Below are positions 1,487-64,000 of a DNA stretch of 64,000 nt, piece after piece. This DNA comes from an uncultured Tenacibaculum sp. (lineage in GTDB: Bacteria > Bacteroidota > Bacteroidia > Flavobacteriales > Flavobacteriaceae). The notes beneath the pieces were generated by a model that was not told the origin of the DNA, did not search any database, and worked only from the letters and a program-made list of their open reading frames with translations. The translations under genes and the position numbers were made by a program. The DNA lies in contig NZ_CANMMT010000002.1 in the NCBI RefSeq assembly GCF_947499065.1, positions 59,313-123,312 of the forward strand, in the 5' to 3' direction. Each line of letters starts with the position of its first letter. Within the stretch, counting starts at the first letter, position 1.

Positions 1487-4336
1487 ATGAATTATTTAAA
1501 ACTTTTATTAAGTACAATACTTGTTCTTTTTATAAGTACTGCTGTTTTAGCACAAAAATCTACCATTACTGGGGTAGTTAGCGATGGAAGTTATCCACTT
1601 CCAGGAGCTAGTGTTGTAGTTGTAGGAACTACAAAAGGGGTAAATACAGATATTGATGGAAACTTTGTCTTGAGTAAAGTCGGTATTGGAGAAATCGAAT
1701 TAGAAATATCATATATAGGTTTTCAAGCAAAAAAAGTAAAAGTATCCTTAGAGGAAGGAGCTCAAAAAAATATAGGAGTTGTAACATTAATTTCTTCTTC
1801 ACAAGAATTAGATGAAGTAATTATTAGCGGTGGTACACGAAGAAATAGCGAAGCTAAAGCATTAAGTATTCAAAAGAAATCGATGAGTATTATGAATGTT
1901 ATTGCAGCTGATGGTATAGGTAAATTACCAGATCGTAATGCTGCAGAAACTGTTCAACGTATTCAAGGATTATCTATAGAAAGAGACCAAGGAGAAGGGC
2001 GTTTTGTATCGGTAAGAGGATTGCCACCATTTTGGACATCTACCACTATTAACGGAAATAGAATTCCAACTGCTGAAGAAGAAACTACTTCAAGAGCTAC
2101 AGCATTCGATTTTTTTCCTTCAGAATTAATATCGTATGTACAAGCTGCAAAAGCATTTACTCCCGATATGGAAGCTGATGGAATTGGAGGAGGAGTAAAT
2201 TTTATAACGCAAACAGCTCCTACGAAACAAATTTTAAGTATAAACATTGGAGGAGGTTATAACGATAAATCAGGTAAGCCAATTTATAACGCGTCGTTAA
2301 CTTATGGTAATAAAAGTAAGGATGGAAAGTTTGGTTTTATTATCAATGGATCCTATTGGAATAGAAACTGGGGAACAGATAATTTTGAAGCTCGTAGAAA
2401 AGGAGATGAAGGAGTGTTTAGAATGGAGTTAAGAGATTATAATGGTGTAAGAATAACAACAGGTTTAAATGGAGCTATGGAGTATAATTTTACACCAGAT
2501 TATAAAATGTACTTCAGAGGAGTTTATGGTACGTTATCAGATACAGAAACACATTACAAACACAGAGTTCGTTTTGATAAATTCGATTCAGGTACCAATA
2601 CAGCTAGAGTAGAATTACAAAATATTTATAACGAACTTATTACAGAAATGTTTGGTGGAGAGCTTGGAGGAAAGCATTCATTAATAAACGGTAAGCTTGA
2701 TTGGAGTATTGCTTCTTATTCAAATGAATTTAGATATGGAAACATTCCTACAGCAAAAGATAAAAGTTATTATGTAGTTAAGTTTAAACAAGATGGTATT
2801 GGTATAAAACCAACATACTTAGATAATAGACCAACAGCCAATGGAGGAGCAGGAGATGATAGAGCATATTGGAAAGCAGATGGAGGTTTGTTAGACTATA
2901 ATGATACAGACGCCTTATTTGGTTTCTTTAGTGACCCAAATTTTAAAATGGATGCAACACAAATGTCTTTTTCTGATTTAGAGTTATATAAAATTTCAAT
3001 TAAAGAGCGAGATAATATAGTAGCTGCATTAAATTATGAACATACTATAAACGATAATTTTAAAATTAAAGTAGGAACAAAGTTTAGAGATAAAGATCGT
3101 AGAGCAACATTTGAAGATTTGTATTATGGATGGTCAGGAACAGGAGCTACACCAGTTTTATCAGATTATTCACAGTATTTAATGAATCAACCAGGGAAGG
3201 GAGATTTCTTAAAAGAAATGGGGTCTAATATTCAATCAACATTTAGTCCAGTACTATCTCAAGCTGGAATGAAAAACTTTTGGATAACAAATCAAGCTAA
3301 TTTATCAGTTTTACCAGGAGATTCATCAGCCTTACAATTTAATAGCGGTTTAGGTAGAAACTTTAATGTAGATGAAACTCATTTATCATTCTATGGTATG
3401 GGAACTTTAAAAGCATCTGAACAATGGACTATTTTAGGAGGTTTAAGAGCTACAAAAACAGAAACAAAAGTAGATGGGTATGTTGTTGAAAACAATGTTT
3501 TAACCAAAGCTATGAATACGAAAAGTTATTGGGCAGTATTACCAATGTTACACATTAAATATTCTCCAAAAAAGGATATGAATATTCGTTTTGCAGCTAC
3601 AAGAAGTTTTTCAAGGCCAAATTTTGGAGACATTTCACCATCTGGAACTTTTATTTCTTTCGATAACGAATTTAAAGGAGGGAATCCAAACTTAAATCCA
3701 ACATTTTCATGGAATTTCGATTTGTTAGGAGAGTATTATTTTAAAAATGTAGGAGTAATCAATGCAGGTTTTTTCTATAAATCAATAACAGATCCAGTAT
3801 TTAATGATACTTATCAAGGAACTTATAATGGACAAGCTGGAGTGGAATTTAGTACACCAACAAACGGTGCTGATGCTTGGATTGCTGGTATGGAATTAGG
3901 AATAAATAAGCGTTTTGATTTCTTACCAGGTTTCTTAAAATACTTTGGAACACAAGTAAATGTAACATTTATGGATTCCGAAATGACAAAGCCAAGTGGT
4001 AGAAAAGTATCTACTCCATACCAAGCAGGAACTTTATTTAATGCTCAATTGTTCTTTGAAAAAGGAGGTTTTAATACAAGGTTAGCATTCAATCATAAAG
4101 GAAGCTATGCTATTGGGTTTGGAGAAAGAGACATAGATGATGTATACTATGGAACTTACAATACTTTAGATTTTTCTGCATCGTATCAAATAGGGAAAAA
4201 TTGGACTATATATACTGATGTAAATAACATTTTAAACAATCCTCTAATTTATCACTATGGGAAAACAGAGGATCGTCCTAAACAAGTAGAATACTATGGT
4301 ATTAAAGGAAACATTGGTGTGAAGTTTAGTCTATAA
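1487..4336 (+). CDS. TonB-dependent receptor (N-terminal CarboxypepD_reg-like domain, plug, barrel), likely phosphonate/organophosphorus uptake
   Basis: Signal peptide, RNAAETVQRIQGLSIERDQGEGRFVSVRGL plug motif, C-terminal GVKFSL beta-strand; substrate inferred from gene context only. Confidence 0.9.
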   Translation: MNYLKLLLSTILVLFISTAVLAQKSTITGVVSDGSYPLPGASVVVVGTTKGVNTDIDGNFVLSKVGIGEIELEISYIGFQAKKVKVSLEEGAQKNIGVVTLISSSQELDEVIISGGTRRNSEAKALSIQKKSMSIMNVIAADGIGKLPDRNAAETVQRIQGLSIERDQGEGRFVSVRGLPPFWTSTTINGNRIPTAEEETTSRATAFDFFPSELISYVQAAKAFTPDMEADGIGGGVNFITQTAPTKQILSINIGGGYNDKSGKPIYNASLTYGNKSKDGKFGFIINGSYWNRNWGTDNFEARRKGDEGVFRMELRDYNGVRITTGLNGAMEYNFTPDYKMYFRGVYGTLSDTETHYKHRVRFDKFDSGTNTARVELQNIYNELITEMFGGELGGKHSLINGKLDWSIASYSNEFRYGNIPTAKDKSYYVVKFKQDGIGIKPTYLDNRPTANGGAGDDRAYWKADGGLLDYNDTDALFGFFSDPNFKMDATQMSFSDLELYKISIKERDNIVAALNYEHTINDNFKIKVGTKFRDKDRRATFEDLYYGWSGTGATPVLSDYSQYLMNQPGKGDFLKEMGSNIQSTFSPVLSQAGMKNFWITNQANLSVLPGDSSALQFNSGLGRNFNVDETHLSFYGMGTLKASEQWTILGGLRATKTETKVDGYVVENNVLTKAMNTKSYWAVLPMLHIKYSPKKDMNIRFAATRSFSRPNFGDISPSGTFISFDNEFKGGNPNLNPTFSWNFDLLGEYYFKNVGVINAGFFYKSITDPVFNDTYQGTYNGQAGVEFSTPTNGADAWIAGMELGINKRFDFLPGFLKYFGTQVNVTFMDSEMTKPSGRKVSTPYQAGTLFNAQLFFEKGGFNTRLAFNHKGSYAIGFGERDIDDVYYGTYNTLDFSASYQIGKNWTIYTDVNNILNNPLIYHYGKTEDRPKQVEYYGIKGNIGVKFSL

Positions 4337-4371
4337 GCTATGAGTAAAGATTTGAATTAAATGCAAAAACA

Positions 4372-4395
4372 AAGCTCTCAAATACTTGAGAGCTT
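4372..4395 (+). other. Intra-operonic stem-loop after the TonB receptor gene
   Basis: aagctctcaa-atac-ttgagagctt, followed by gttctg with no strong U-run. Confidence 0.65.
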
Positions 4396-4415
4396 GTTCT
4401 GTAAAATAAAAAAAT

Positions 4416-5684
4416 ATGCGTTTACGATTTTTATTACAAGCCTCCATAGCCGCATTCGGAACTTATTTCTGTATGTATGCATTTAGGAAACCATTTACGG
4501 TAGCAACATTTGCTAACGAATCATTCATAGGAATAGATTTTAAAATATTACTCATAATAGCTCAAGTAATAGGGTATACACTATCTAAGTTTATAGGAAT
4601 TAGAATAATAGCTGAGATGAAAAGCTCAAAAAGAATGATGTTTTTAATAGGCTTTATTCTTTTTGCTGAATTAGCTCTTTTAGGTTTTGCTACAGTTCCT
4701 GCTCCTTATAATATAGTATGTTTATTTTTTAATGGACTTCCTTTAGGAATGATTTGGGGAATAGTATTTTCCTATTTAGAAGGAAGAAAAGCTACAGAGT
4801 TATTGGGAGTTATTTTATCATCAAGTTTTATCGTGTCTTCAGGCGCTGTAAAATCGGTAGGTAAAATAGTTTTAGATACATTTCACTTTAATGAATATTG
4901 GATGCCTTTTATAACAGGAGGATTTTTTATTATTCCACTAATCTTTTTTGCTTGGTTATTAGAAAGACTACCAGAACCAACAAAAGAAGATAAATTGCTT
5001 AGAACAGTAAGAAAACCATTAGATAAAACTGAAAGAAAGAGGTTGTTTAGAAAGTTTGTAATTCCATTAACTCTTATAGTTTTCTTCTTTATGCTATTGA
5101 CATCTATTAGAGATTTTAGAGACAATTTTGCAAGAGAAATTTGGGATGCATTAGGGTATGAAGACGCATCAATTTATAGTATATCAGAAATACCAATAGC
5201 AATAACAGTACTAATAGTTTTAGGTTTTATAGGGAGCATAACTAAAAACTTTAAAGCTTTTATGTATTATCATTATGTATTGATAATTGGCTGTACTTCA
5301 ATTATCATTTCGACTTTATTATTTCAGCAGTCATTAATTTCTCCCTTAGTATGGATGACGGTTTCAGGATTAGGTTTGTATAGTTGCTATGTACCATTCA
5401 ATGGAATTTTCTTTGATAGAATGATAGCAACTTTTAAAATTAAAGGAAACGTAGGTTTTTTAATATACATAGCAGATGCATTCGGTTATTTGGGTAGTAT
5501 ACTCATTTTACTATATAAAAACTTTGGAAAAGGCGATATTTCTTGGCTAAGCTTTTTCATAACAGCTTTATACTTTTTAGCATTTATAGGGCTAATAATA
5601 ACTACTTATTGTTTTCAATTTTTTAGAAGAAAATATAAAAAACCAATACAAATACAAGAATTAATTTATGAACAACAAATATGA
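4416..5684 (+). CDS. DUF5690-type MFS-like membrane transporter
   Basis: About 12 hydrophobic helices; YFCMYAFRKPF, SSSFIVSSG, RDFRDNF and YIADAFGYLGS motifs recalled for this family. Confidence 0.8.
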   Translation: MRLRFLLQASIAAFGTYFCMYAFRKPFTVATFANESFIGIDFKILLIIAQVIGYTLSKFIGIRIIAEMKSSKRMMFLIGFILFAELALLGFATVPAPYNIVCLFFNGLPLGMIWGIVFSYLEGRKATELLGVILSSSFIVSSGAVKSVGKIVLDTFHFNEYWMPFITGGFFIIPLIFFAWLLERLPEPTKEDKLLRTVRKPLDKTERKRLFRKFVIPLTLIVFFFMLLTSIRDFRDNFAREIWDALGYEDASIYSISEIPIAITVLIVLGFIGSITKNFKAFMYYHYVLIIGCTSIIISTLLFQQSLISPLVWMTVSGLGLYSCYVPFNGIFFDRMIATFKIKGNVGFLIYIADAFGYLGSILILLYKNFGKGDISWLSFFITALYFLAFIGLIITTYCFQFFRRKYKKPIQIQELIYEQQI

Positions 5685-48300: not shown

Positions 48301-48663
48301 ATGGATAAAACAACTTTAATTATTGGAGCATCATTAAATCCTAACAAGTATTCTAATATTGCACTTAAAAGATTAGATGATAAAGAAATAAAAATACATG
48401 CCATTGGGGCTAGAGAAGGAAGAGTAAATGATGTCAATATTACAACAGAGAAAACATCACTTGATAATATTGATACCGTTACAATGTATTTGAATCCTAA
48501 AAGACAGGAAGAATATTACGATTATGTGTTAGGGTTAAATCCTAGAAGGGTAATATTCAACCCAGGTACAGAGAATTTTGAATTTTCAAAAATATTAAAA
48601 GAGAAAGGAATTAAATCAGAAATAGCATGTACATTGGTTTTGTTATCAACCAATCAATATTAA
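48301..48663 (+). CDS. CoA-binding protein (YccU-like)
   Basis: TLIIGASLNP.KYS, IDTVTMYL.P, RVIFNPGTEN, ACTLVLL; ATG at 48301. Confidence 0.9.
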   Translation: MDKTTLIIGASLNPNKYSNIALKRLDDKEIKIHAIGAREGRVNDVNITTEKTSLDNIDTVTMYLNPKRQEEYYDYVLGLNPRRVIFNPGTENFEFSKILKEKGIKSEIACTLVLLSTNQY

Positions 48664-49601
48664 TTTAAAACTTCTATTGGAAATGAGTTGGTAGAGTATA
48701 GTTTACCAGCTTCAGCTAATTCTACATTTTCAAAAATAGTCTGTGCTTCTGCTTTAAAGTCTTTTAGGTTTGAGTACCTACTAGAATAGTGTCCAATAAT
48801 TAGTTTTCCTGCATTTGCTTGATTTGCAATGCTAGCAGCTTGTTCGGCAGTTGAGTGTTTGGTTTTATCACACAAATCTTCTCTATCTTTTAAAAAGGTA
48901 GCTTCATGGTATAGTAAATCTACATCTTTAATAATAGGTACTATATCTGGTTTGTAGGAAGTGTCACTACAAAAAGCATAACTTTTTGGTTTTGGAGGAT
49001 CTATTGTCAATTCAAAATTAGGAATTATTTCTCCTGTAGATAAAACAAAATCTTTACCAGCTTTTATGTTGTGAAAATCGCAGGTTTCTATTTCATCATA
49101 TTGTTGAATATTCTCAATATGTAATTTTCTAGGTTTAGGCTTTTCTTTAAATAAAAAGCCATTAGTGTATACTCTATGATCTAAAGGAATAGTATGTACA
49201 CTTATTTTATCATCTTCAAAGATTAATTCACTTTCGTTTGAATCTAATTCATGAAAAACAATGTTGTATTTAGTCCAAGATTTCGAAATTTTTAATTGAA
49301 GAACAGTAATTTCCTTAATTCCTTTAGGACCATAAATATGTAAGTCTTTTTCTCTATTAAGTATTCCAAATGTAGAAATTAAACCAATTAATCCAAAAAA
49401 GTGATCTCCATGCAAATGAGAGATAAATATATGGTTGATTTTAGAAAAACCAACTTTATACTTTCTCATTTGTCTTTGAGTACCTTCTCCACAATCGATT
49501 AAAAAATGACGGTTATTTATTTCTAAGTACTGAGATGTAGGGTGTGCATTAACTCTTGGGGTAGCAGAGTGGCATCCTAAAATAGTTAAATGCAAACTCA
49601 T
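48660..49601 (-). CDS. rnz: Ribonuclease Z
   Basis: LIDCGEGTQ, ISHLHGDH, AFCSDT, HEATF, HSTA, GHYSSRY. Confidence 0.97.
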   Translation of the reverse strand: MSLHLTILGCHSATPRVNAHPTSQYLEINNRHFLIDCGEGTQRQMRKYKVGFSKINHIFISHLHGDHFFGLIGLISTFGILNREKDLHIYGPKGIKEITVLQLKISKSWTKYNIVFHELDSNESELIFEDDKISVHTIPLDHRVYTNGFLFKEKPKPRKLHIENIQQYDEIETCDFHNIKAGKDFVLSTGEIIPNFELTIDPPKPKSYAFCSDTSYKPDIVPIIKDVDLLYHEATFLKDREDLCDKTKHSTAEQAASIANQANAGKLIIGHYSSRYSNLKDFKAEAQTIFENVELAEAGKLYSTNSFPIEVLN

Positions 49602-49922
49602 TTATTTTATAACAAAACGTTTTGAAATAATATTCTTATTGCTTTGTATAGCATATATATACATACCTGACTTTAAATCATTGCGATAAAAAGGGTAAGA
49701 GTTACGTCCTTTAGAAATATTTAATTCTTTTCTATATACAGTTTTACCTAATACGTTTCTAACGGTGAAAATAACGGTCTGGTCACTTTTAGCATTAAAT
49801 GAAATAGTGGTATTATTGGTAAAAGGGTTAGGAGAAGCAACTAACTTGTCTACTTGTTTCTCTTGAGAGAAACTAGATAAGGTTACTAAGAATAAAAATA
49901 ATAAAAGTATTTTTTTTACCAT
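49602..49922 (-). CDS. Signal peptide plus stand-alone T9SS type A C-terminal sorting domain
   Basis: PNPF, NVLGK, GMYIY, KRFVIK; essentially no passenger domain. Confidence 0.82.
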   Translation of the reverse strand: MVKKILLLFLFLVTLSSFSQEKQVDKLVASPNPFTNNTTISFNAKSDQTVIFTVRNVLGKTVYRKELNISKGRNSYPFYRNDLKSGMYIYAIQSNKNIISKRFVIK

Positions 49923-57827: not shown

Positions 57828-59735
57828 ATGAGTAACTACCATGTAAAAACCTTAGAGGAATATTTTCAAGTTTACAGAAGATCAGTACGAAACCCTGAAT
57901 TATTTTGGGAAGAAATAGCTGAAGAACACTTTGTTTGGAGGAAAAAATGGGATTCTGTTTTAGAATACGATTTTTCAAAACCAGAAGTAAAATGGTTTGA
58001 TGGAGCAGAATTAAATATAACTGAAAACTGTATCGATCGTCATTTACAAATTAGAGGAGATAAAACAGCAATTCTTTTTGAACCCAATGATCCCAAAGAA
58101 GAAGCAGAGCATATTACATATAAAGAATTATATAAGAGAGTATGTAAGTTTGCTAATGTTTTAAAAGAAAATGGCGTACAAAAAGGAGATAGAGTTTGTA
58201 TTTATTTACCAATGATTCCAGAGTTAGCTATCTCTGTATTAGCATGTGCTAGAATTGGAGCCGTACATTCGGTAGTATTTGCAGGTTTTTCATCAACAGC
58301 GTTATCAACTAGAATAAATGATTGTGAAGCGAAAATGGTAATTACTTCTGATGGATCTTACAGAGGAGCAAAAACAATCGATTTAAAAGGAATTGTAGAT
58401 GAAGCGTTGAACGATTGTGAATGTGTTGAAACTGTACTGGTAGCAAAAAGGATTAATTCTGACATTCAAATGAAAGAAGGTCGCGATAAATGGTTACAAC
58501 CGTTATTAGAAGAAGCATCAGATTTTTGTGAGCCAGAAATAGTAAAAGCAGAAGATCCTTTATTTATCTTATATACTTCAGGTTCAACAGGAAGTCCAAA
58601 GGGAATGTTACATACCACAGCAGGATATATGATATATTCAGCATATACTTTTAAAAATGTATTTAACTATAAAGAAAATGATGTGTATTGGTGTACTGCC
58701 GATATTGGTTGGATTACTGGGCATAGTTATATAGTATATGGGCCTTTGGCTAATGGAGCAACTACAGTAATGTTTGAAGGAGTACCAAGTTACCCAGATT
58801 TTGGGCGTTTTTGGGAAATAGTAGAAAAACATAAAGTAAGCCAGTTTTATACTGCACCAACAGCTATTAGAGCTTTAGCAAAAGAGAAGTTAGAATTTGT
58901 TGATAAGTACGATTTATCTTCTCTAAAAGTTTTAGGAACCGTAGGAGAACCTATAAATGAAGAGGCGTGGCATTGGTATAATGACAATGTAGGGAAAAAG
59001 AAAAGTCCTATTGTAGATACTTGGTGGCAAACAGAAACAGGAGGAATGATGATTTCTCCAATTCCTTATGTGACACCTACAAAGCCAACTTATGCAACTT
59101 TACCATTACCAGGAGTGCAATTAGCGTTAATGGACGAAAATGGAAAAGAAATAGTAGGAAACCAAGTAGATGGGCGTTTGTGTGTAAAATATCCGTGGCC
59201 ATCAATGGCAAGAACTATCTGGGGAAATCACCAACGTTATAAAGAAACCTATTTCTCTGCTTTTGAAAACAAGTATTTTACAGGAGATGGAGCTTTACGT
59301 GATGAAGTTGGGTATTACAGAATAACGGGTAGAGTAGATGATGTAATTATTGTGTCAGGACATAATTTAGGAACAGCACCGATAGAAGATGCTATCAATG
59401 AGCATCCAGCTGTAGCAGAAAGCGCTATTGTAGGATATCCGCATGATGTAAAAGGAAACGCATTGTATGGTTATGTAATATTAAAAGATGTAGGAGAGGG
59501 GAGAAATCACGATAATTTACGTAAGGAAATTAACCAAATTATAACCGAGCATATAGGGCCTATTGCCAAATTGAATAAAATCCAATTCACTATAGGATTG
59601 CCAAAAACACGTTCAGGTAAAATTATGCGAAGAATTTTGCGTAAAATAGCGCACAACGAATTAGATAATTTAGGAGATGTTTCTACTTTGTTAAACCCAG
59701 AAGTGGTACAAAGTATTATCGACGAACGATTGTAA
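57828..59735 (+). CDS. acs: Acetyl-CoA synthetase
   Basis: YTSGSTGSPKG, DTWWQTETGG, GRVDD, PKTRSGKIMRR. Confidence 0.98.
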   Translation: MSNYHVKTLEEYFQVYRRSVRNPELFWEEIAEEHFVWRKKWDSVLEYDFSKPEVKWFDGAELNITENCIDRHLQIRGDKTAILFEPNDPKEEAEHITYKELYKRVCKFANVLKENGVQKGDRVCIYLPMIPELAISVLACARIGAVHSVVFAGFSSTALSTRINDCEAKMVITSDGSYRGAKTIDLKGIVDEALNDCECVETVLVAKRINSDIQMKEGRDKWLQPLLEEASDFCEPEIVKAEDPLFILYTSGSTGSPKGMLHTTAGYMIYSAYTFKNVFNYKENDVYWCTADIGWITGHSYIVYGPLANGATTVMFEGVPSYPDFGRFWEIVEKHKVSQFYTAPTAIRALAKEKLEFVDKYDLSSLKVLGTVGEPINEEAWHWYNDNVGKKKSPIVDTWWQTETGGMMISPIPYVTPTKPTYATLPLPGVQLALMDENGKEIVGNQVDGRLCVKYPWPSMARTIWGNHQRYKETYFSAFENKYFTGDGALRDEVGYYRITGRVDDVIIVSGHNLGTAPIEDAINEHPAVAESAIVGYPHDVKGNALYGYVILKDVGEGRNHDNLRKEINQIITEHIGPIAKLNKIQFTIGLPKTRSGKIMRRILRKIAHNELDNLGDVSTLLNPEVVQSIIDERL

Positions 59736-59761
59736 TAAATTATTAGAGTAAATAATAAAAC

Positions 59762-59800
59762 AGCTACAGTTTGATTTCCTATTGAACTGTGGCTTTTTTT
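59762..59800 (+). terminator. Terminator of acs
   Basis: agctacagtt/aactgtggct followed by a T-run. Confidence 0.75.
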
Positions 59801-59951
59801 ATTGTTGAAATGATAGAGTAGAAGTTTTTAAAGTAAGAGTACCTTAAAAAATTAAAAGTTTAGAGAAGAGATGACTATACTCATGGGGGACGCACTAACT
59901 TCTTTTAAATAGGTTAGCATGAGGTAGACGTGTTAAAAATGCTTAAAAAGC

Positions 59952-60635
59952 TTAAATAAAGCCTTTGTCTCTAGCTATTAGAATAAGATCTTTGTCATCA
60001 GAGCTATTTACACCAAACATTTGTTTAATTTGACGTTTTCTTTTTTCAATACCAGCAAAAGAAAGCGGAATAATATCAGGTAAATCTTTCATTTTTGTAC
60101 CAATAGACAGCTCATATAGCATTTTTCTATCTAAATCGTCAATAAGATATTCACTAGTAACTTCATTTCTAAGAAGTTTCGTAATAGTTTTGCTATAGTA
60201 TGGAGGATCGTTTAAAACTTCTTGTATAGCAGTTACTAACTCTTGAGGAGTAATATCATTTTTAACTAAAAAACCATCAGGGTTTATGCTTTTAAAAATG
60301 CTATGTACTCTATAATTATCGTTAAAAGTAGTAGAAACAATTATTCTAGCATCAGGTAGCATTGTGTTTATTTTTAAACCTAAGTCTTCACCAGATAAAA
60401 TAGTGCCATCAGAAGAAGCTGGTAATCGCATGTCTAAAAAAATGATATCTACTTTTTTAGAGGTATCAGCATGTTGTTTTATAAGCTTATAAGCTTCATC
60501 GCAATTGTGAGCAACGTGGATTTCAAAGGCAATATGTTCGTTTTGTTGATCAATGTAATTAAAGGCACTTTTGTAGGCTTCAGAAATTAATGGATGATCA
60601 TCAATAATTAAAGCAGTGTATTGTTTACTATTCAT
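59952..60635 (-). CDS. Response regulator: receiver domain plus divergent NarL/LuxR-like HTH
   Basis: IIDDH, FLDMRLP (phospho-Asp), STT, LVK; C-terminal LS..GIEKRKRQIKQMF helix. Confidence 0.92.
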   Translation of the reverse strand: MNSKQYTALIIDDHPLISEAYKSAFNYIDQQNEHIAFEIHVAHNCDEAYKLIKQHADTSKKVDIIFLDMRLPASSDGTILSGEDLGLKINTMLPDARIIVSTTFNDNYRVHSIFKSINPDGFLVKNDITPQELVTAIQEVLNDPPYYSKTITKLLRNEVTSEYLIDDLDRKMLYELSIGTKMKDLPDIIPLSFAGIEKRKRQIKQMFGVNSSDDKDLILIARDKGFI

Positions 60636-62658
60636 TATTCATTTTATAAGGGGTTGAAATTAAAAGGGCAGTACCTTTACCTACTTCCGATAAAAACTGT
60701 ACTGTTCCGTTTAATTTGTCTACTCTAGATTTTATGTTTTTCATTCCAATACCTTTTTTACCCTTTTTAGGATTAAAGCCAATGCCGTCGTCTTTTAAAT
60801 TGATAATAAGGTTTTGGTTTTCGTTAGAGAATACTAAAGTAACGTTTTTTGCTTTTGCATGTTTTATAATATTTTGCAAAGCTTCTTGTATAATTCTATA
60901 AATATTAGCTTTGGTAATTTCATTAATGTTTTTCCAAACAATATTTTTATCAAAAGAAAATTTATAGTTAAAGTTACCAATGGTACTTTTATCTTTTAGT
61001 AATTGTTCTATAATACTGGTAAAGTTAATATTAGAGCTATCAAAATTATCGCTCAGTTTGTGAGATACGTCTCTAATTTCCTTTTCAATTTCTTGAAGTT
61101 CATCTAAAAAAGATTGGTGTTTTTCAAGGGTTTGTTCATCACCTTTAAGAGGTAAAAAACCTAAGCCAAAACGAGTTCCAAACAGTTTACCTAGAATACC
61201 ATCATGAAGTTCTTCGGAAATTCTGTTACGTTCTTTAACTTTTTCTTCTTCTAGTTTGGCTTGTTGTTGTAGGGTTAATACATATACTTCTTCGTTAGCT
61301 TTTTGCTGTTCAGCTTCTAGGCTAAGTTTTTCGTTTTTTACCTTTTGAACACGTAAAAAATATAGTAAACTTAAAATAAGGATTCCACCAATACTGGTAA
61401 CAATAATCCAAATACGTTGTTGGTTTAAACGTTTAGTTTCTTCTATGTATTCATCAGTTTCAAACTCAATACGTGTAAATTTATTTTGAGTTCTACGTTC
61501 AGCGCTAATTAAACTATCATTAAACACTATATAGCGATCTAAGTATTTTTTAGAATTTTGTTTGTCTAAATTGGCTAGTTGTTTTAAAGAAGTTAAATAA
61601 TCGCCACCATTTTTTATTTGTTTGGCTAAAGTATTGGCTTCTTTGGCATATTTTAAGGCATTGATAGTGTCTTTATTGTATTTAAAGTAATCGGATATGC
61701 ATATCTTAGAGTTTAAGATATTAGTTTTGTCACCAATACTATCTCTAATGGATAAAGCTTTAAAAAAATCTTTCTTTATACCAGTAGTATCTTTCATTAA
61801 TAGTTTACAATAGGCTTTGTTGTTAAGTAATATAGCATATTGACTTCTGTTTATCTTTTTGTTATTTAAATCTTTATTATAGTATTTAAGGGCGGTTTGA
61901 TAGTCTTTTTTTTCTTGATAAGCATGCCCTATATTGTTATATATTATAATATAGCTTTTTACTCTAGTTTTTTTAGGGATTTTATCAAAATACTCTAGGG
62001 CTTTTATATAATACTCTATGGCTTTATCATATTCTTTTATATCATATTGTAATAAACCTAAATGGTTATATGAATCGTAAAGTTTTTTATGATTTTTTAA
62101 TTCCTTAAATAATTCTATTACTTTAATATTTAAAATTTCACTACCAATATAATCTTTATAGCGTCCTTTAATACGTGTCATTCCCCATAAAACTGTAGAA
62201 GCTTCTTTTTTATGATTTTCTTTAATAAAGTTTTCATAAGCTTTGTTAAAATGAAAGTATGCTTTATCAAATATTTCTAGTTTTACGTAATAACTAGCAT
62301 AATTCCAATGAGCATCTGCTGTAGCATATGTATGTTTATTTTTTATAGCAGAGTTAAGAGCTTTTTTATTTACTTTAAAAAATGAAGTAGTATCTTTCAA
62401 TCTATAGAACTCATAGGCTATAGAACTGAGTTCTAAAGGGAATTGTTTGTTGTGGTTTAAAATATAATTGTAAGATTTTACTAAAAGTTGAGATCTGGAA
62501 GTACTATCTAGTTTTTTATTTTTAGCTTTTTTTAACCAAGTTTTTATACTATCGTTTTTTAGTTTAAACACAGTATGTTTATTAGAGGAAGAAAAGCATA
62601 GTTGATTTCCTATGGATAAGAAAAATATAAATGCTGCAATTTTTTTTAAAGCTTTCAA
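60628..62658 (-). CDS. Membrane sensor histidine kinase: periplasmic TPR array plus HisKA_3 and HATPase_c
   Basis: TTG start, N-terminal hydrophobic segment, TPR helices (SYNHLGLLQYDIKEYDKAIEYY; IYNNIGHAYQEKKDYQTALKYY), TM helix, ERNRISEELHDG, QEALQNIIKH, DDGIGF, GIGMKNI. Confidence 0.94.
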   Translation of the reverse strand: MKALKKIAAFIFFLSIGNQLCFSSSNKHTVFKLKNDSIKTWLKKAKNKKLDSTSRSQLLVKSYNYILNHNKQFPLELSSIAYEFYRLKDTTSFFKVNKKALNSAIKNKHTYATADAHWNYASYYVKLEIFDKAYFHFNKAYENFIKENHKKEASTVLWGMTRIKGRYKDYIGSEILNIKVIELFKELKNHKKLYDSYNHLGLLQYDIKEYDKAIEYYIKALEYFDKIPKKTRVKSYIIIYNNIGHAYQEKKDYQTALKYYNKDLNNKKINRSQYAILLNNKAYCKLLMKDTTGIKKDFFKALSIRDSIGDKTNILNSKICISDYFKYNKDTINALKYAKEANTLAKQIKNGGDYLTSLKQLANLDKQNSKKYLDRYIVFNDSLISAERRTQNKFTRIEFETDEYIEETKRLNQQRIWIIVTSIGGILILSLLYFLRVQKVKNEKLSLEAEQQKANEEVYVLTLQQQAKLEEEKVKERNRISEELHDGILGKLFGTRFGLGFLPLKGDEQTLEKHQSFLDELQEIEKEIRDVSHKLSDNFDSSNINFTSIIEQLLKDKSTIGNFNYKFSFDKNIVWKNINEITKANIYRIIQEALQNIIKHAKAKNVTLVFSNENQNLIINLKDDGIGFNPKKGKKGIGMKNIKSRVDKLNGTVQFLSEVGKGTALLISTPYKMNNE

Positions 62659-62688
62659 ATAATCTGATTTTAAGCAAAGCTAAAAAAA

Positions 62689-62714
62689 AAGCCTTTAACA
62701 TTTGTTAAAGGCTT
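62689..62714 (-). terminator. Strong intrinsic terminator after the lipopeptide gene
   Basis: aagcctttaaca-aa-tgttaaaggctt followed by a long U-run on the minus strand. Confidence 0.88.
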
Positions 62715-62732
62715 GTATTTATAAAAAAATGA

Positions 62733-62954
62733 TTAAGATCCAGCACCACGACCATTTCCTTTACCTCCATCATCATTACCTCCATCATTACCACCACCAG
62801 TATCGCCTCCGTAGATATTATCATCATCGCCTATACCAGTTGTTAATTCTGTATTGTTTTTTTCAGGAACTAAATCGTCTTTTGTTAAGTCTGTACAACT
62901 TGTAGTTAAAAGGATTAGCATGCTGATTAGTAAAGTAGTTTTTAAAGTTTTCAT
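62733..62954 (-). CDS. Small lipoprotein (73 aa) with a Gly/Asp/Asn-rich tail, directly upstream of the TPR kinase
   Basis: MKTLKTTLLISMLILLTTSC lipoprotein signal; A-rich translation initiation region; own terminator; ATG at 62954 preferred over TTG at 62963. Confidence 0.85.
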   Translation of the reverse strand: MKTLKTTLLISMLILLTTSCTDLTKDDLVPEKNNTELTTGIGDDDNIYGGDTGGGNDGGNDDGGKGNGRGAGS

Positions 62955-62989
62955 AATTTTCAATTTTTAATATTTGACATTAGTTTTCC

Positions 62990-63330
62990 ATGCCGCATAT
63001 GCAGCAGTAATAGCATCGAATTGGTTATGTTCGATTTTTTTTGAGCCTTGGTAAAATCAAGGCAATAGTCATCTAGCCCAAGTAATTTGGGTAGTTAGTA
63101 GAATTAAGTTGATATGGAACATCAACTCGTGAAGACTCATTACTACTAAGGCCTATTGAGTACAACAGACTTCAGGAATTCTACATTGTCATAAATAAAG
63201 GAAGCGTTTTTGCAATTTTTAATGAACGCTAGTTGATTCTGTCACTAAAATAGTGACATAGATTGTGTAAACGAACACAATTTTAGTAAGCGTTGTTGTT
63301 TAATGAGTAAACGTCCTTTTTCATTTAGTT
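62990..63330 (-). ncRNA. Candidate structured leader / ncRNA upstream of the lipopeptide gene
   Basis: About nine stems in about 330 nt including a multibranch junction; no ORF of 60 aa or more; strand not certain. Confidence 0.5.
63283..63324 (-). CDS. Candidate 13-aa upstream ORF MKKDVYSLNNNAY
   Basis: ATG a few nt after a near-consensus -7 element (TAAAATTG, 63335-63342); covers a switchable helix. Confidence 0.25.
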   Translation of the reverse strand: MKKDVYSLNNNAY

Positions 63331-63451
63331 TGTGCAATTTTAATATAATCATAGCTTTCAATTTCGTTCAATTAAGATAGTGAAAAATAACGAATTACAC
63401 AAGTTTTTTAATACTTTTTTTACTGTGTTCGTTTTTATTTTTTGGAATAAA

Positions 63452-63478
63452 AAAAGGCGCCCTTTTAAGGCGCCTTTT
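63452..63478 (-). terminator. GC-rich intrinsic terminator after the 38-aa ORF
   Basis: aaaaggcgcc/ggcgcctttt with a U-run on the minus strand. Confidence 0.85.
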
Positions 63479-63506
63479 GTATATATACTATATTAATGAC
63501 TTGTTG

Positions 63507-63623
63507 TTAACTCATCTTTAAATATTGCTTCTTACAATAAACATCCTTACTCATTTTTATATAACTGCCATCACCTCCTATAATTAGTCTTTCGATGATT
63601 GGGTTTAAATAAAATAGTTTCAT
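63507..63623 (-). CDS. Small ORF of 38 aa missing from the ORF track (MKLFYLNPIIERLIIGGDGSYIKMSKDVYCKKQYLKMS)
   Basis: Consensus promoter (TTG-N19-TATATTTG), 5' hairpin, A-rich initiation region and downstream terminator bracket it. Confidence 0.6.
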   Translation of the reverse strand: MKLFYLNPIIERLIIGGDGSYIKMSKDVYCKKQYLKMS

Positions 63624-63681
63624 AATCTTTAAATATTAATTTGTTAAATAATCATTCAAATACTTCTGAATGATTACGGTA

Positions 63682-63731
63682 CAAATATACAAAATATTTT
63701 AATAAAAACAAGGAAAATAACGAGTTATTTT
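63682..63731 (-). promoter_or_regulatory. Promoter of the 38-aa ORF with an upstream 8-2-8 palindrome
   Basis: TATATTTG (63682-63689), TTG (63709-63711), AAAATAAC-GA-GTTATTTT (63714-63731). Confidence 0.6.
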
Positions 63732-63898
63732 ATTGGTAATCAGTAAGTTAAGTTGTTTTTAAGGTAGGAAGGTCCTGTCCAGATATTATCTAGATTTTAG
63801 CTATTTAGCAACAGTTTGTAATTCAGTTCTTTACGAGTCAAAGTGTGTTTTTTGTATGTTTAAATTAAAAATGTCATTTTTTAAAAAAAATTATAAAA

Positions 63899-63927
63899 AA
63901 AGCGTCCAATTTATAGTTGGACGCTTT
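63899..63927 (-). terminator. Terminator of a minus-strand gene entering from the right edge
   Basis: aaagcgtccaa/ttggacgcttt. Confidence 0.8.
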
Positions 63928-63952
63928 ATATATTGTTAATTTATGTATTGAA

Positions 63953-64000
63953 TCATATTCGAAAATTGTCAGAAATAAACACATTACGTCCGTTTTTATA
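63953..64000 (-). CDS. C-terminal end of a gene truncated by the window edge (...YKNGRNVFISDNFRI*)
   Basis: Open frame from base 64000 to a TGA about 25 nt before a terminator. Confidence 0.5.
   Translation of the reverse strand, partial: YKNGRNVFISDNFRI

Follow-up and report, generated by a model that had tools for sequence, protein, structure and literature searches.

A candidate peptide-ligand and sensor-kinase module with pherotype-like alleles in Tenacibaculum and other Flavobacteriaceae

Introduction

In a 64,000-nucleotide stretch of DNA from an uncultured Tenacibaculum sp. (contig NZ_CANMMT010000002.1, positions 59,313 to 123,312; "the window" hereafter means this whole stretch), three neighbouring genes encode a small exported lipopeptide, a sensor histidine kinase with an array of tetratricopeptide repeats (TPRs) and a response regulator. 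We propose that the periplasmic TPR sensor has the exported peptide as its cognate ligand, and that the genes constitute a peptide-ligand/sensor-kinase module with pherotype-like alleles. We give this reading a probability of roughly 55%. The initial annotation of this DNA had taken the peptide tail, or a fragment of it, for the ligand of the TPR domain. That idea is now supported by the enrichment of small exported-peptide genes next to homologous kinases and by the co-variation of the C-terminal peptide module with the TPR domain. Judged from the sequences and a structural model, direct pairing of peptide and TPR sensor as ligand and receptor is rather probable.

Peptide pheromone signalling is regarded as a Gram-positive trait. 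We know of no established peptide signalling system in Bacteroidota, nor of a ligand for any of the periplasmic-TPR kinases that are abundant in these bacteria. Full-text literature searches returned no description of this module or of such a system in Bacteroidota.

A small exported-peptide gene adjoins most kinases of the family

The organism from which the window derives is close to T. aiptasiae (kinase identity 84-86%). The gene layout first read from the window is present in its sequence as described: all three genes lie on the minus strand, a 73-amino-acid (aa) lipobox peptide is encoded 74 nt upstream of the kinase start (TTG at 62658), and the kinase gene (60628..62658, 676 aa) overlaps the regulator gene (227 aa) by 8 nt (Table 1). 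An alternative TTG start at 62963 would lengthen the peptide by three residues, to 76 aa. The peptide open reading frame (ORF) is conserved and open in ~70 genomes, and its third codon positions are the most variable (0.147/0.10/0.205 by codon position), which is a coding signature. Because a terminator hairpin and T-run, not mentioned in the initial annotation, stand inside the 74-nt gap, the peptide gene is not simply co-transcribed with the kinase. A hairpin and T-run follow the peptide gene in 55 of 68 homologous loci, formed by unrelated stem sequences, which suggests that the peptide transcript is short and abundant and that little transcription continues into the kinase gene. No Bacteroidetes-type promoter (TTG...TAnnTTTG) was visible downstream of the terminator, ahead of the kinase start, and a scan for sigma-70-type promoters found sites no more often than in shuffled DNA.

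Searching one genome per species, we identified 79 loci with kinase homologues, whose identity to the window kinase ranges from ~84-86% down to 33%. These loci come from Tenacibaculum, Polaribacter, Lutibacter, Hanstruepera, Aestuariivivens, Aureibaculum, Flavivirga, Flavobacterium and several metagenome-assembled genomes. One crude signal-peptide rule was applied to all ORFs, and a co-oriented ORF of 40-110 aa ending <=300 nt upstream was counted as a match. By this measure, a small signal-peptide ORF precedes 69 of the 77 kinases with enough upstream sequence, whereas of the other large ORFs in these loci only 4 of 223 are so preceded. The small ORFs ahead of kinases have a median length of 64 aa and lie at a median distance of 81 nt. 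The associated Fisher p-value (2e-53) overstates independence because the loci are phylogenetically related. Three of the eight kinases without a match do have a small ORF, over-extended by an upstream ATG in two cases and lying further upstream in one, so that manual checks bring the count to 72/77. The initial annotation had suggested looking for such an excess of small ORFs ahead of homologous kinases, and it is there.

Peptide and kinase genes remain adjacent even where kinase identity has fallen to 33%; over this range the peptide sequence is replaced completely and only its type is kept. The regulator gene directly follows the kinase gene in 77 loci, and clustering of all flanking ORFs from 80 loci identified only the kinase and this downstream regulator as shared. 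To judge from these comparisons, the kinase-peptide-regulator trio is a conserved module of the Flavobacteriaceae. Some Flavobacterium loci (L052, L057, L067, L073) have two or three pairs of peptide and TPR kinase genes in tandem before one regulator.

A periplasmic TPR sensor and a divergent NarL/LuxR-type regulator

Pfam models match the kinase over its TPRs (TPR_12/TPR_1/TPR_2 at residues ~195-262), its HisKA_3 domain (476-535, E = 6e-6) and its HATPase_c domain (585-670, E = 1e-10). The H-box His485, Asn596, the DxGxG motif at 623-627 and the GxG motif at 636-638 are invariant in 42 homologues. An AlphaFold2 model based on the same number of homologues (mean predicted local confidence, pLDDT, 79, and >90 over residues ~40-390) has an N-terminal hydrophobic helix at residues 2-21, ~9 TPR-like helix pairs at residues 40-364, and a single continuous helix at 366-483 that runs through the transmembrane segment IWIIVTSIGGILILSLLYFL into the DHp domain. 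Because this long helix crosses the transmembrane segment after the array, the model places the TPRs in the periplasm. The Pfam matches and the model together bear out the earlier view of an extracytoplasmic TPR array between an N-terminal hydrophobic segment and a transmembrane helix.

Foldseek searches with the modelled sensor gave the TPR domains of LGN/Pins as best matches (TMt ~0.7). The inner channel of this domain encloses extended peptides such as those of NuMA, Inscuteable and Frmpd. The next matches in the model-based search were RapI, RapJ-CSF, NprR and Rap-pLS20 (TMt 0.5-0.7). As modelled, the sensor is a TPR superhelix of the peptide-channel kind, like LGN and Rap. A PDB sequence search with the sensor matched only generic or designed TPR proteins. 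The kinase core resembles VraS and DesK structures by Foldseek. Its NCBIfam matches, to MctS, UhpB and LiaS, are partial and sub-threshold, as are all NCBIfam matches to the kinase. The FimS model (NF053520 equivalog) scores 28.1 bits against a cut-off of 600 and aligns with residues 164-445 only; by this measure the kinase is not a FimS equivalog.

In the regulator, Pfam recognises a REC domain (E = 1e-9) in which Asp13, Asp68, Thr102 and Lys125 are invariant. The Pfam GerE model has no direct match to the C-terminal domain of the window regulator and directly matches 1 of 36 family members. A profile of the 36 orthologous regulators aligns over its full length, both domains included, with RcsB, VraR, NarL and EvgA (E = 2e-13); it also matches the C-terminal domains of EsrB/SsrB, and its best PDB profile match is RcsB. 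From the alignment of the orthologue profile with RcsB, VraR, NarL and EvgA, we class the protein as a divergent NarL/LuxR-family regulator. The original description as NarL-like is thus upheld by the profile, though not by a direct GerE match.

Peptides share a C-terminal unit that is sometimes repeated in tandem

All peptides encoded at kinase loci have a signal peptide. The window peptide begins MKTLKTTLLISMLILLTTS-C-TDLTKDDLVPE..., with a lipobox (LLTTS-C, residues 15-20; LTTS before Cys20) that predicts lipidation. A lipobox is found in 44 of 72 peptides, from Tenacibaculum, Lutibacter and their allies, and its cysteine is kept in all Tenacibaculum and Lutibacter homologues. Peptides of the Flavobacterium clade have a signal peptide without the lipobox cysteine. 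The classification as a lipoprotein therefore suits the window peptide but does not extend to the whole family.

After its cysteine, the window peptide reads C-T-D-L-T-K-D-D, and its relatives C-T-D-L-T-E-D. The first residue is polar, the stretch is acidic, and K-D-D stands at +6..+8. Published lipoprotein export signals (C-X-K-(D/E)2, SDDDD, SDDFE) lie at +2..+6, and position matters for their action (PMC5080379). The initial annotation cited acidic residues shortly after the lipidated cysteine as promoting surface export; the acidic stretch of the window peptide resembles the published signals only loosely, its K-D-D being displaced from their position (PMC5080379).

The peptide tails are disordered and of low complexity, with 16% G, 13% T, 12% D and 10% N (52% for G/T/D/N) and no Trp or Cys. 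Lysine or arginine occurs within the last five residues of 61/72 peptides, and D, N or E is the terminal residue in 50/72. Conservation is found in a unit of 13-17 residues at the C-terminus, which usually ends ...[K/R]-x-[D/N]. It takes the form DTGG-x8-12-GKGN in Tenacibaculum, ATGE...[KR]x[DN] in Lutibacter and AAGSGAAGGNVRLD in Flavobacterium. The window peptide ends, after a low-complexity spacer, in DTGGGNDGGNDDGGKGNGRGAGS, and DTGGGNDGGNDDGGKGN(GRGAGS) is the module that we propose as the ligand or "core peptide". Its six-residue extension past the usual ...GGKGN end (GRGAGS, 62736..62753) is matched in the closest relative, P0122, by GRNSGV; nearly all other Tenacibaculum homologues stop at ...GGKGN.

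Tandem repetition of the C-terminal unit is seen in Flavobacterium precursors. Two to five near-identical copies of an 11-20-aa unit occur in 12 precursors, AAGSGAAGGNVRLD for example being present four times, and the unit varies by species (AAGAGATGGTVRLD, AVTGSVLSNRKMD, LTGNQGAGGNKKID, IGGRSQEPTFS). Copies that are identical within a precursor and different between species would be expected of a multi-copy precursor of one released peptide. A different form of multiplicity is seen at locus L078 (3924..4948), where four tandem paralogues of a 57-aa lipopeptide (...ETDPIIIPKKD) and a fifth, non-lipobox peptide precede the kinase.

We also considered whether the peptide might be a ribosomally synthesised and post-translationally modified peptide (RiPP). 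The NCBIfam model "chryseobasin-related MNIO class RiPP peptide" matches it with E=0.03 and 15 bits against a cut-off of 40. We reject this assignment because the weak match (window 62895..62954, peptide residues 1-39) covers the signal-peptide region only, where we judge it to be a resemblance between signal peptides, and because no maturase gene lies nearby.

Peptide end and sensor vary together as one cassette

Compared with its nearest relative, L019, the window is 94% identical in nucleotide sequence over the upstream non-coding region and 98% over the first 93 nt of the peptide gene. Identity is 60% in the peptide tail and 77% over kinase residues 1-410, and it stands at 92% in the kinase core, 91% in the regulator gene and 95% in acs. 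The variable part of the kinase comprises residues ~1-340; from ~360 on, the protein is 92-100% identical within species groups.

This variability is also evident at synonymous sites. In pairs other than L009-L013, synonymous divergence (dS) is 0.95-1.75 for the TPR segment, compared with 0.17-0.42 for the kinase core and 0.21-0.53 for acs, and TPR values are 3-10 times those of the kinase core, acs and regulator genes. For the window and L019, dS is 1.18 (TPR), 0.42 (core) and 0.31 (acs), and for L005 and L039 it is 1.75, 0.17 and 0.53, respectively. Because dS is raised too while dN/dS stays at 0.10-0.31, the variability of the TPR segment is not explained by relaxed constraint. In the pair L009-L013, TPR dS is 0.22, with 0.52 in the kinase core and 0.475 in acs; a value below the genome baseline implies recent sharing or exchange of an allele. 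The sensor segment thus follows a genealogy of its own, decoupled from the species tree, and its allelic lineages are old, recombine and are maintained by selection.

Variation within a species is sharply bounded. In three strains of T. maritimum the module occupies the same locus, and the regulator, ABC transporter and desaturase genes that neighbour it are also the same. Both flanks are 99-100% identical among these strains, and the cassette between them is 55-63% identical. It runs from nt ~157 of the gene for the 65-aa peptide (after ...KIDFTG; the last 13 codons) to nt ~1240, at kinase residue ~307. The three peptide C-termini are GSGDNPDNNTEKE, ENGSDDGNGSKNN and EDGSDGGNTDRE, and each allele has its own terminator hairpin. 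In Flavobacterium, metagenome contigs compared with one Flavobacterium locus break off where the repeats lie, and the units that they encode differ (...SVISTKKLD, ...GVYVKHRLD, ...SGIVNRKKL). The TPR part in this population is 7-8.5% divergent, and the LytTR gene, kinase core and regulator ~2%.

Peptide ends and sensors also correspond between species. In nine Tenacibaculum loci, four classes of C-terminal module (class 1, DTGGT[G/E]NDNDGGKGN; class 2, DTGGSDGSGNDGGKGN; class 3, DTGGDDGNSGGTGKGN; class 4, DTGGGDTDTDDGGKGN) match TPR allele classes one-to-one, with TPR identity of 88-100% within and 52-74% between classes. Spacers are shuffled across module classes, and kinase cores are 93-100% identical throughout. 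Within an allele class, the module is identical across species that carry different spacers. In a partial Mantel test of 20 loci that controlled for kinase-core distance, exploratory in that the division into module and spacer was made post hoc, the module co-varied with the TPR segment (r=0.35, p=0.0015) and the spacer did not (r=0.02, p=0.41). As far as these comparisons go, the joint swap of peptide end and sensor as one cassette has the genetic signature that marks a pheromone peptide paired with its receptor.

Proposed mechanism and alternative explanations

In the mechanism that we favour, the small gene would yield a Sec-exported precursor, lipid-anchored at Cys20 in Tenacibaculum and unanchored in Flavobacterium. 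Its disordered tail would present the 13-17-residue C-terminal module, here DTGGGNDGGNDDGGKGN(GRGAGS). Whether tethered or released by proteolysis, this module may bind the adjacent kinase, in the concave channel of its periplasmic TPR superhelix. Binding would alter, in one direction or the other, the autophosphorylation of His485 and phosphotransfer to Asp68 of the NarL/LuxR-type regulator. The peptide gene's own upstream control region and terminator would provide much peptide mRNA and little read-through into the kinase, and the system is probably autoregulated. Peptide module and TPR sensor would diversify jointly as a recombining specificity cassette, the alleles of which would be "pherotypes".

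From the maintenance of several specificity alleles within species, we infer that cells exchange the signal, as they do in the pherotype systems comQXP and agr. That it is genuinely intercellular is possible, though we would not quite put the chances at even. On a broader scale, one could envision that Flavobacteriaceae, among them such fish pathogens as T. maritimum and Flavobacterium spp., practise quorum sensing or kin discrimination with a peptide pheromone read by a periplasmic TPR kinase, with multiple old, recombining pherotypes per species; this generalisation is tentative. The pheromone would be a lipopeptide in some genera and would derive from a multi-copy precursor in others.

A number of observations count against a peptide ligand of this kind. 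An acidic peptide of ~1.5 kDa would have to leave one cell and re-enter the periplasm of another, crossing the outer membrane twice, and the flanking ORFs of the 80 loci include no conserved protease, transporter or exporter, outer-membrane channel or modification enzyme. The extension of the window peptide past ...KGN means that a free C-terminus is not essential unless the extension is trimmed. A tblastn search of the window found no kinase paralogue and no LytTR regulator, and the absence of the latter is a further difficulty. Co-variation of the whole tail with the TPR segment is weak (partial r=0.21, p=0.026); the co-evolution of peptide and sensor anticipated at the outset is therefore found in the last ~15 residues, the C-terminal module, but not in the tail as a whole, and it was only after the fact that module and spacer were separated. 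L005 and L039 provide a counter-example, with tails 84% identical and TPRs 60%, and L009 and L013 the reverse. Finally, module, intergenic region and TPR segment are contiguous (~80-120 nt apart), so that their co-variation could result from hitch-hiking with a selected TPR allele, and there is mosaic recombination within the TPR domain, inside the cassette.

Other roles for the peptide must be weighed against this proposal. Like RcsF, NlpE, QseG or LpqB, it could act in cis, as an accessory or tether that stays in the envelope of the producer and reports envelope stress, not density; its disordered tail would contact the TPR sensor in a manner set by periplasm width, lipoprotein trafficking or proteolysis. 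Such a role would be consistent with the lipobox of the Tenacibaculum/Lutibacter clade (44/72 peptides), with a post-Cys motif that is only loosely like an export signal, with RcsB as the best PDB profile match of the regulator and with the lack of any exporter or importer linked to the module. A Sec signal alone would also be enough to bring the peptide into the periplasm where the TPR domain lies. We nonetheless consider an accessory unlikely. The Flavobacterium clade does without lipidation, and its tandemly repeated unit looks like a multi-copy precursor of a released peptide. If the pair acted purely within one cell, moreover, it would be hard to see why a species should have multiple old, recombining specificity alleles, and the peptide has no folded domain of the RcsF/NlpE kind, only a low-complexity tail without a hydrophobic core.

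Alternatively, the peptide may be an output of the system, a secreted effector with a role at the surface, in the matrix, in adhesion or as an antimicrobial, whose promoter is the main target of the two-component system. The TPR domain would then sense some other cue, and the variable peptide end would hitch-hike. Complete turnover of the peptide would have to be reconciled with an adjacency that persists from ~84-86% to 33% kinase identity, and the left edge of the cassette repeatedly coincides with the beginning of the C-terminal module, next to a spacer that recombines freely. The identity of the module within an allele class, in species with different spacers, is equally hard to accommodate. 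An output role does draw support from the peptide gene having a terminator and a promoter region of its own, the latter with direct repeats, and from the ~100 nt that separate the variable peptide end from the variable sensor, a linkage that could explain their co-variation. On balance we think it improbable that the peptide is an output in place of a ligand, and an output role does not exclude an input role, since autoregulated signal genes are normal in peptide signalling. Least probable by far is the absence of any functional link, in which an unrelated conserved lipoprotein would lie beside a sensor made hypervariable by relaxed constraint or by assembly and annotation artefacts. Sensor domains do generally evolve faster than kinase cores. 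However, synonymous divergence 3-10 times higher at a dN/dS of 0.10-0.31, recurrence of the same pattern in independent isolate genomes and metagenomes, and the enrichment of 69/77 against 4/223 largely refute this explanation.

Relation to known systems

The closest functional analogues of the module appear to be comQXPA and agr, and it would work most like comQXPA. In both comQXPA and the module, a kinase of the HisKA_3 class is paired with a NarL/LuxR-type regulator, and the gene for a lipid-modified pheromone lies directly upstream of the kinase, lipidation being predicted here by the lipobox. Both have a polymorphic cassette that comprises the pheromone and the N-terminal sensor part, with kinase core and regulator conserved. 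Unlike the window kinase, which would sense through a periplasmic TPR array, ComP senses through a polytopic membrane domain. ComX is isoprenylated by the cassette-encoded ComQ, whereas no modification enzyme is linked to the module loci, and ComQXPA operates in a Gram-positive envelope without an outer membrane. Given its periplasmic TPR sensor and the lack of a ComQ-like enzyme, the module is not a member of the comQXPA group. Clustering of the flanking ORFs of the 80 loci identified no processing, modification or export gene of the ComQ, AgrB or ComAB type.

Agr (AgrBDCA) and ComCDE/Blp resemble the module in that a small precursor gene adjoins a receptor kinase gene and a hypervariable region spans the peptide and the sensor domain. 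Like these systems, many members outside Tenacibaculum have a LytTR regulator and 21-bp-spaced repeats. The window differs from them in lacking a LytTR regulator and in having a kinase of the HisKA_3 type with TPRs, not a polytopic HPK10 kinase; its peptide, unlike those of Agr and ComCDE, uses a Sec or lipoprotein signal peptide. The RRNPP receptors (Rap, NprR, PlcR, PrgX, AimR) share with the module a TPR superhelix and a neighbouring gene for a small exported propeptide. They are, however, cytoplasmic receptors of peptides imported through Opp, fused to a helix-turn-helix domain or phosphatase and restricted to Firmicutes and their mobile elements, while the TPR array of the window kinase is periplasmic and fused to a histidine kinase. 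The parallel with RRNPP receptors drawn at first sight thus survives as a structural analogy, through the Foldseek matches to Rap and NprR, and fails in architecture and cellular location.

Two further groups come from diderm envelopes. In RcsF-IgaA/Rcs, NlpE-CpxA, QseG-QseE and LpqB-MtrB, as in the module, the extracytoplasmic part of a kinase pathway has a lipoprotein that acts on it or is encoded together with it. Those lipoproteins are folded and do not form polymorphic specificity alleles, in contrast to the mature product here, which has ~50 disordered residues; part of the family does without lipidation, and the unit is sometimes repeated in tandem. FimS, a sensor kinase that controls fimbriae, shares with the window kinase its origin in Bacteroidota and a periplasmic TPR array, although the FimS model matches the window kinase only weakly, over residues 164-445. 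FimS/FimR of Porphyromonas gingivalis is the closest characterised relative in Bacteroidota, and its ligand is still unknown (PMC11053733). The periplasmic array of FimS has ~8 TPR motifs, and the authors who described it suspect that its ligand is a polypeptide (PMC11053733); there is no report of a peptide gene linked to it, in which FimS differs from the kinases described here. As FimS has the periplasmic TPR sensor but no known ligand (PMC11053733), it remains fair to say, as the initial annotation did, that no characterised Bacteroidota system has this layout. The module would represent two-component signalling by peptide sensing with specificity alleles, a kind of system that is known elsewhere and of which the literature searches found no description in Bacteroidota.

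The module offers a concrete, genetically linked candidate ligand for one family of periplasmic-TPR kinases, and its natural specificity alleles provide a ready-made comparison of cognate and non-cognate pairs. Should the proposal be correct, this would be the first peptide-based cell-cell signalling in Bacteroidota and the first such signalling in which a kinase uses a TPR fold as its extracytoplasmic sensor, and it would suggest what FimS-type sensors bind. It would also show how a diderm runs a pherotype system like agr or comQXP, give multi-copy peptide precursors a role in bacteria, and possibly provide handles on the behaviour of aquaculture pathogens.

Candidate control region upstream of the peptide gene and other features

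Upstream of the peptide gene lies an ORF-poor block of ~1.05 kb (62964..64000, continuing past the window end) that is 68-94% identical in DNA sequence across ~30 Tenacibaculum species and as conserved as the flanking coding genes. Read on the minus strand, it opens with a bidirectional terminator. It includes a structured leader directly 5' of the peptide ATG (Table 1), conserved in ~28 loci (L001-L030, L022 and L041, upstream of their peptide genes). Of the 42 pairs in the consensus structure of the leader, 13 show compensatory changes, and none of 500 shuffles reached the observed covariation; 96% of cells are paired, compared with ~40% when the pairing is slid. The leader is a candidate new cis-regulatory RNA. 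An AGCGTT element in it has two possible pairing partners, both copies of AACGCT, so that the leader may adopt alternative structures. When 59700-64000 was scanned with Rfam at E<=1, the leader had no match, and the only hits were chance ones, below threshold, on terminators.

Further upstream, a conserved box and the short ORF2 could be a promoter or operator and a leader ORF of the peptide transcript; a terminator scan found no terminator between ORF2 and the peptide gene. A separate small unit contains ORF1, ahead of which an invariant TATATTTG constitutes a Bacteroidetes-type -7 box. ORF1 and ORF2 are open in most species, and some genome annotations call them as genes (L085, L086). Unlike the peptide gene, neither has an excess of third-position variability, and they may be coding sequences or RNA/DNA elements. 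The conserved leader and the short ORFs seem to point to an extra, undescribed layer of control.

Table 1. Positions of the module genes, their parts and the conserved elements upstream of them
Feature	Position	Strand	Remarks
Response regulator: REC and divergent LuxR/NarL-type helix-turn-helix	59952..60635	-	8-nt overlap with kinase
Kinase residues 341-676: last TPR/stalk helix, transmembrane segment ~416-436, HisKA_3 DHp with His485, HATPase_c	60628..61638	-	Conserved part
Kinase residues 1-340: N-terminal signal/anchor helix and most of periplasmic TPR superhelix (predicted)	61639..62658	-	Hypervariable "specificity" part
Terminator-like hairpin (11 bp stem, 4 nt loop), then T-run	62689..62714	-	Between peptide gene and kinase
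Small exported lipopeptide gene, 73 aa, ATG start	62733..62954	-	Homologues upstream of orthologous kinase throughout Tenacibaculum
Peptide layout: signal peptide and lipobox aa 1-20; conserved TDLTKDDLVPE aa 21-31; variable low-complexity spacer aa 32-50; C-terminal module			
Peptide C-terminal module DTGGGNDGGNDDGGKGN and lineage-specific extension GRGAGS	62736..62804	-	Co-varies with TPR allele; left cassette end
Conserved structured leader, ~290 nt, directly 5' of peptide ATG	62955..63244	-	Covariation
Conserved box TTTTTCACTAT (63377..63387) and ORF2 (ATG 63352, 35 aa, MIILKLHKLNEKGRLL...)	63245..63387	-	
Small unit: invariant TATATTTG, 38-aa ORF1 (63507..63623, ...KDVYC..QYL...), terminator 63478..63452	63452..63689	-	
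Second regulator gene in loci L031-L035, L040, L042, L045-L054, L057-L060, L064, L066, L074, L076, L079	about 3400-4500 in each locus		

Outside Tenacibaculum, ~27 loci have a second regulator gene just upstream of the peptide gene (Table 1), of LytTR type in the four that were tested, and some of the downstream regulators consist of a REC domain only (154 aa). The intergenic region between the LytTR gene and the peptide gene contains direct repeats spaced by 21 bp, CATTCACTATCAAAC / CATTCTACCACAAAC in Flavobacterium and GTTTTACTCATA / CTTTCACTAAA in Lutibacter. This spacing is the geometry of LytTR operators in the agr, com and blp systems.

Elsewhere in the window, at 49602..49922 on the minus strand, a gene for a 106-aa secreted protein with a signal peptide abuts the start of a 313-aa ORF (48660..49601). 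It is the only control match in the window for a small signal-peptide ORF upstream of a gene. The protein has a beta-rich C-terminal region that ends ...SKRFVIK, and it may be a C-terminal-domain protein of the type IX secretion system kind.

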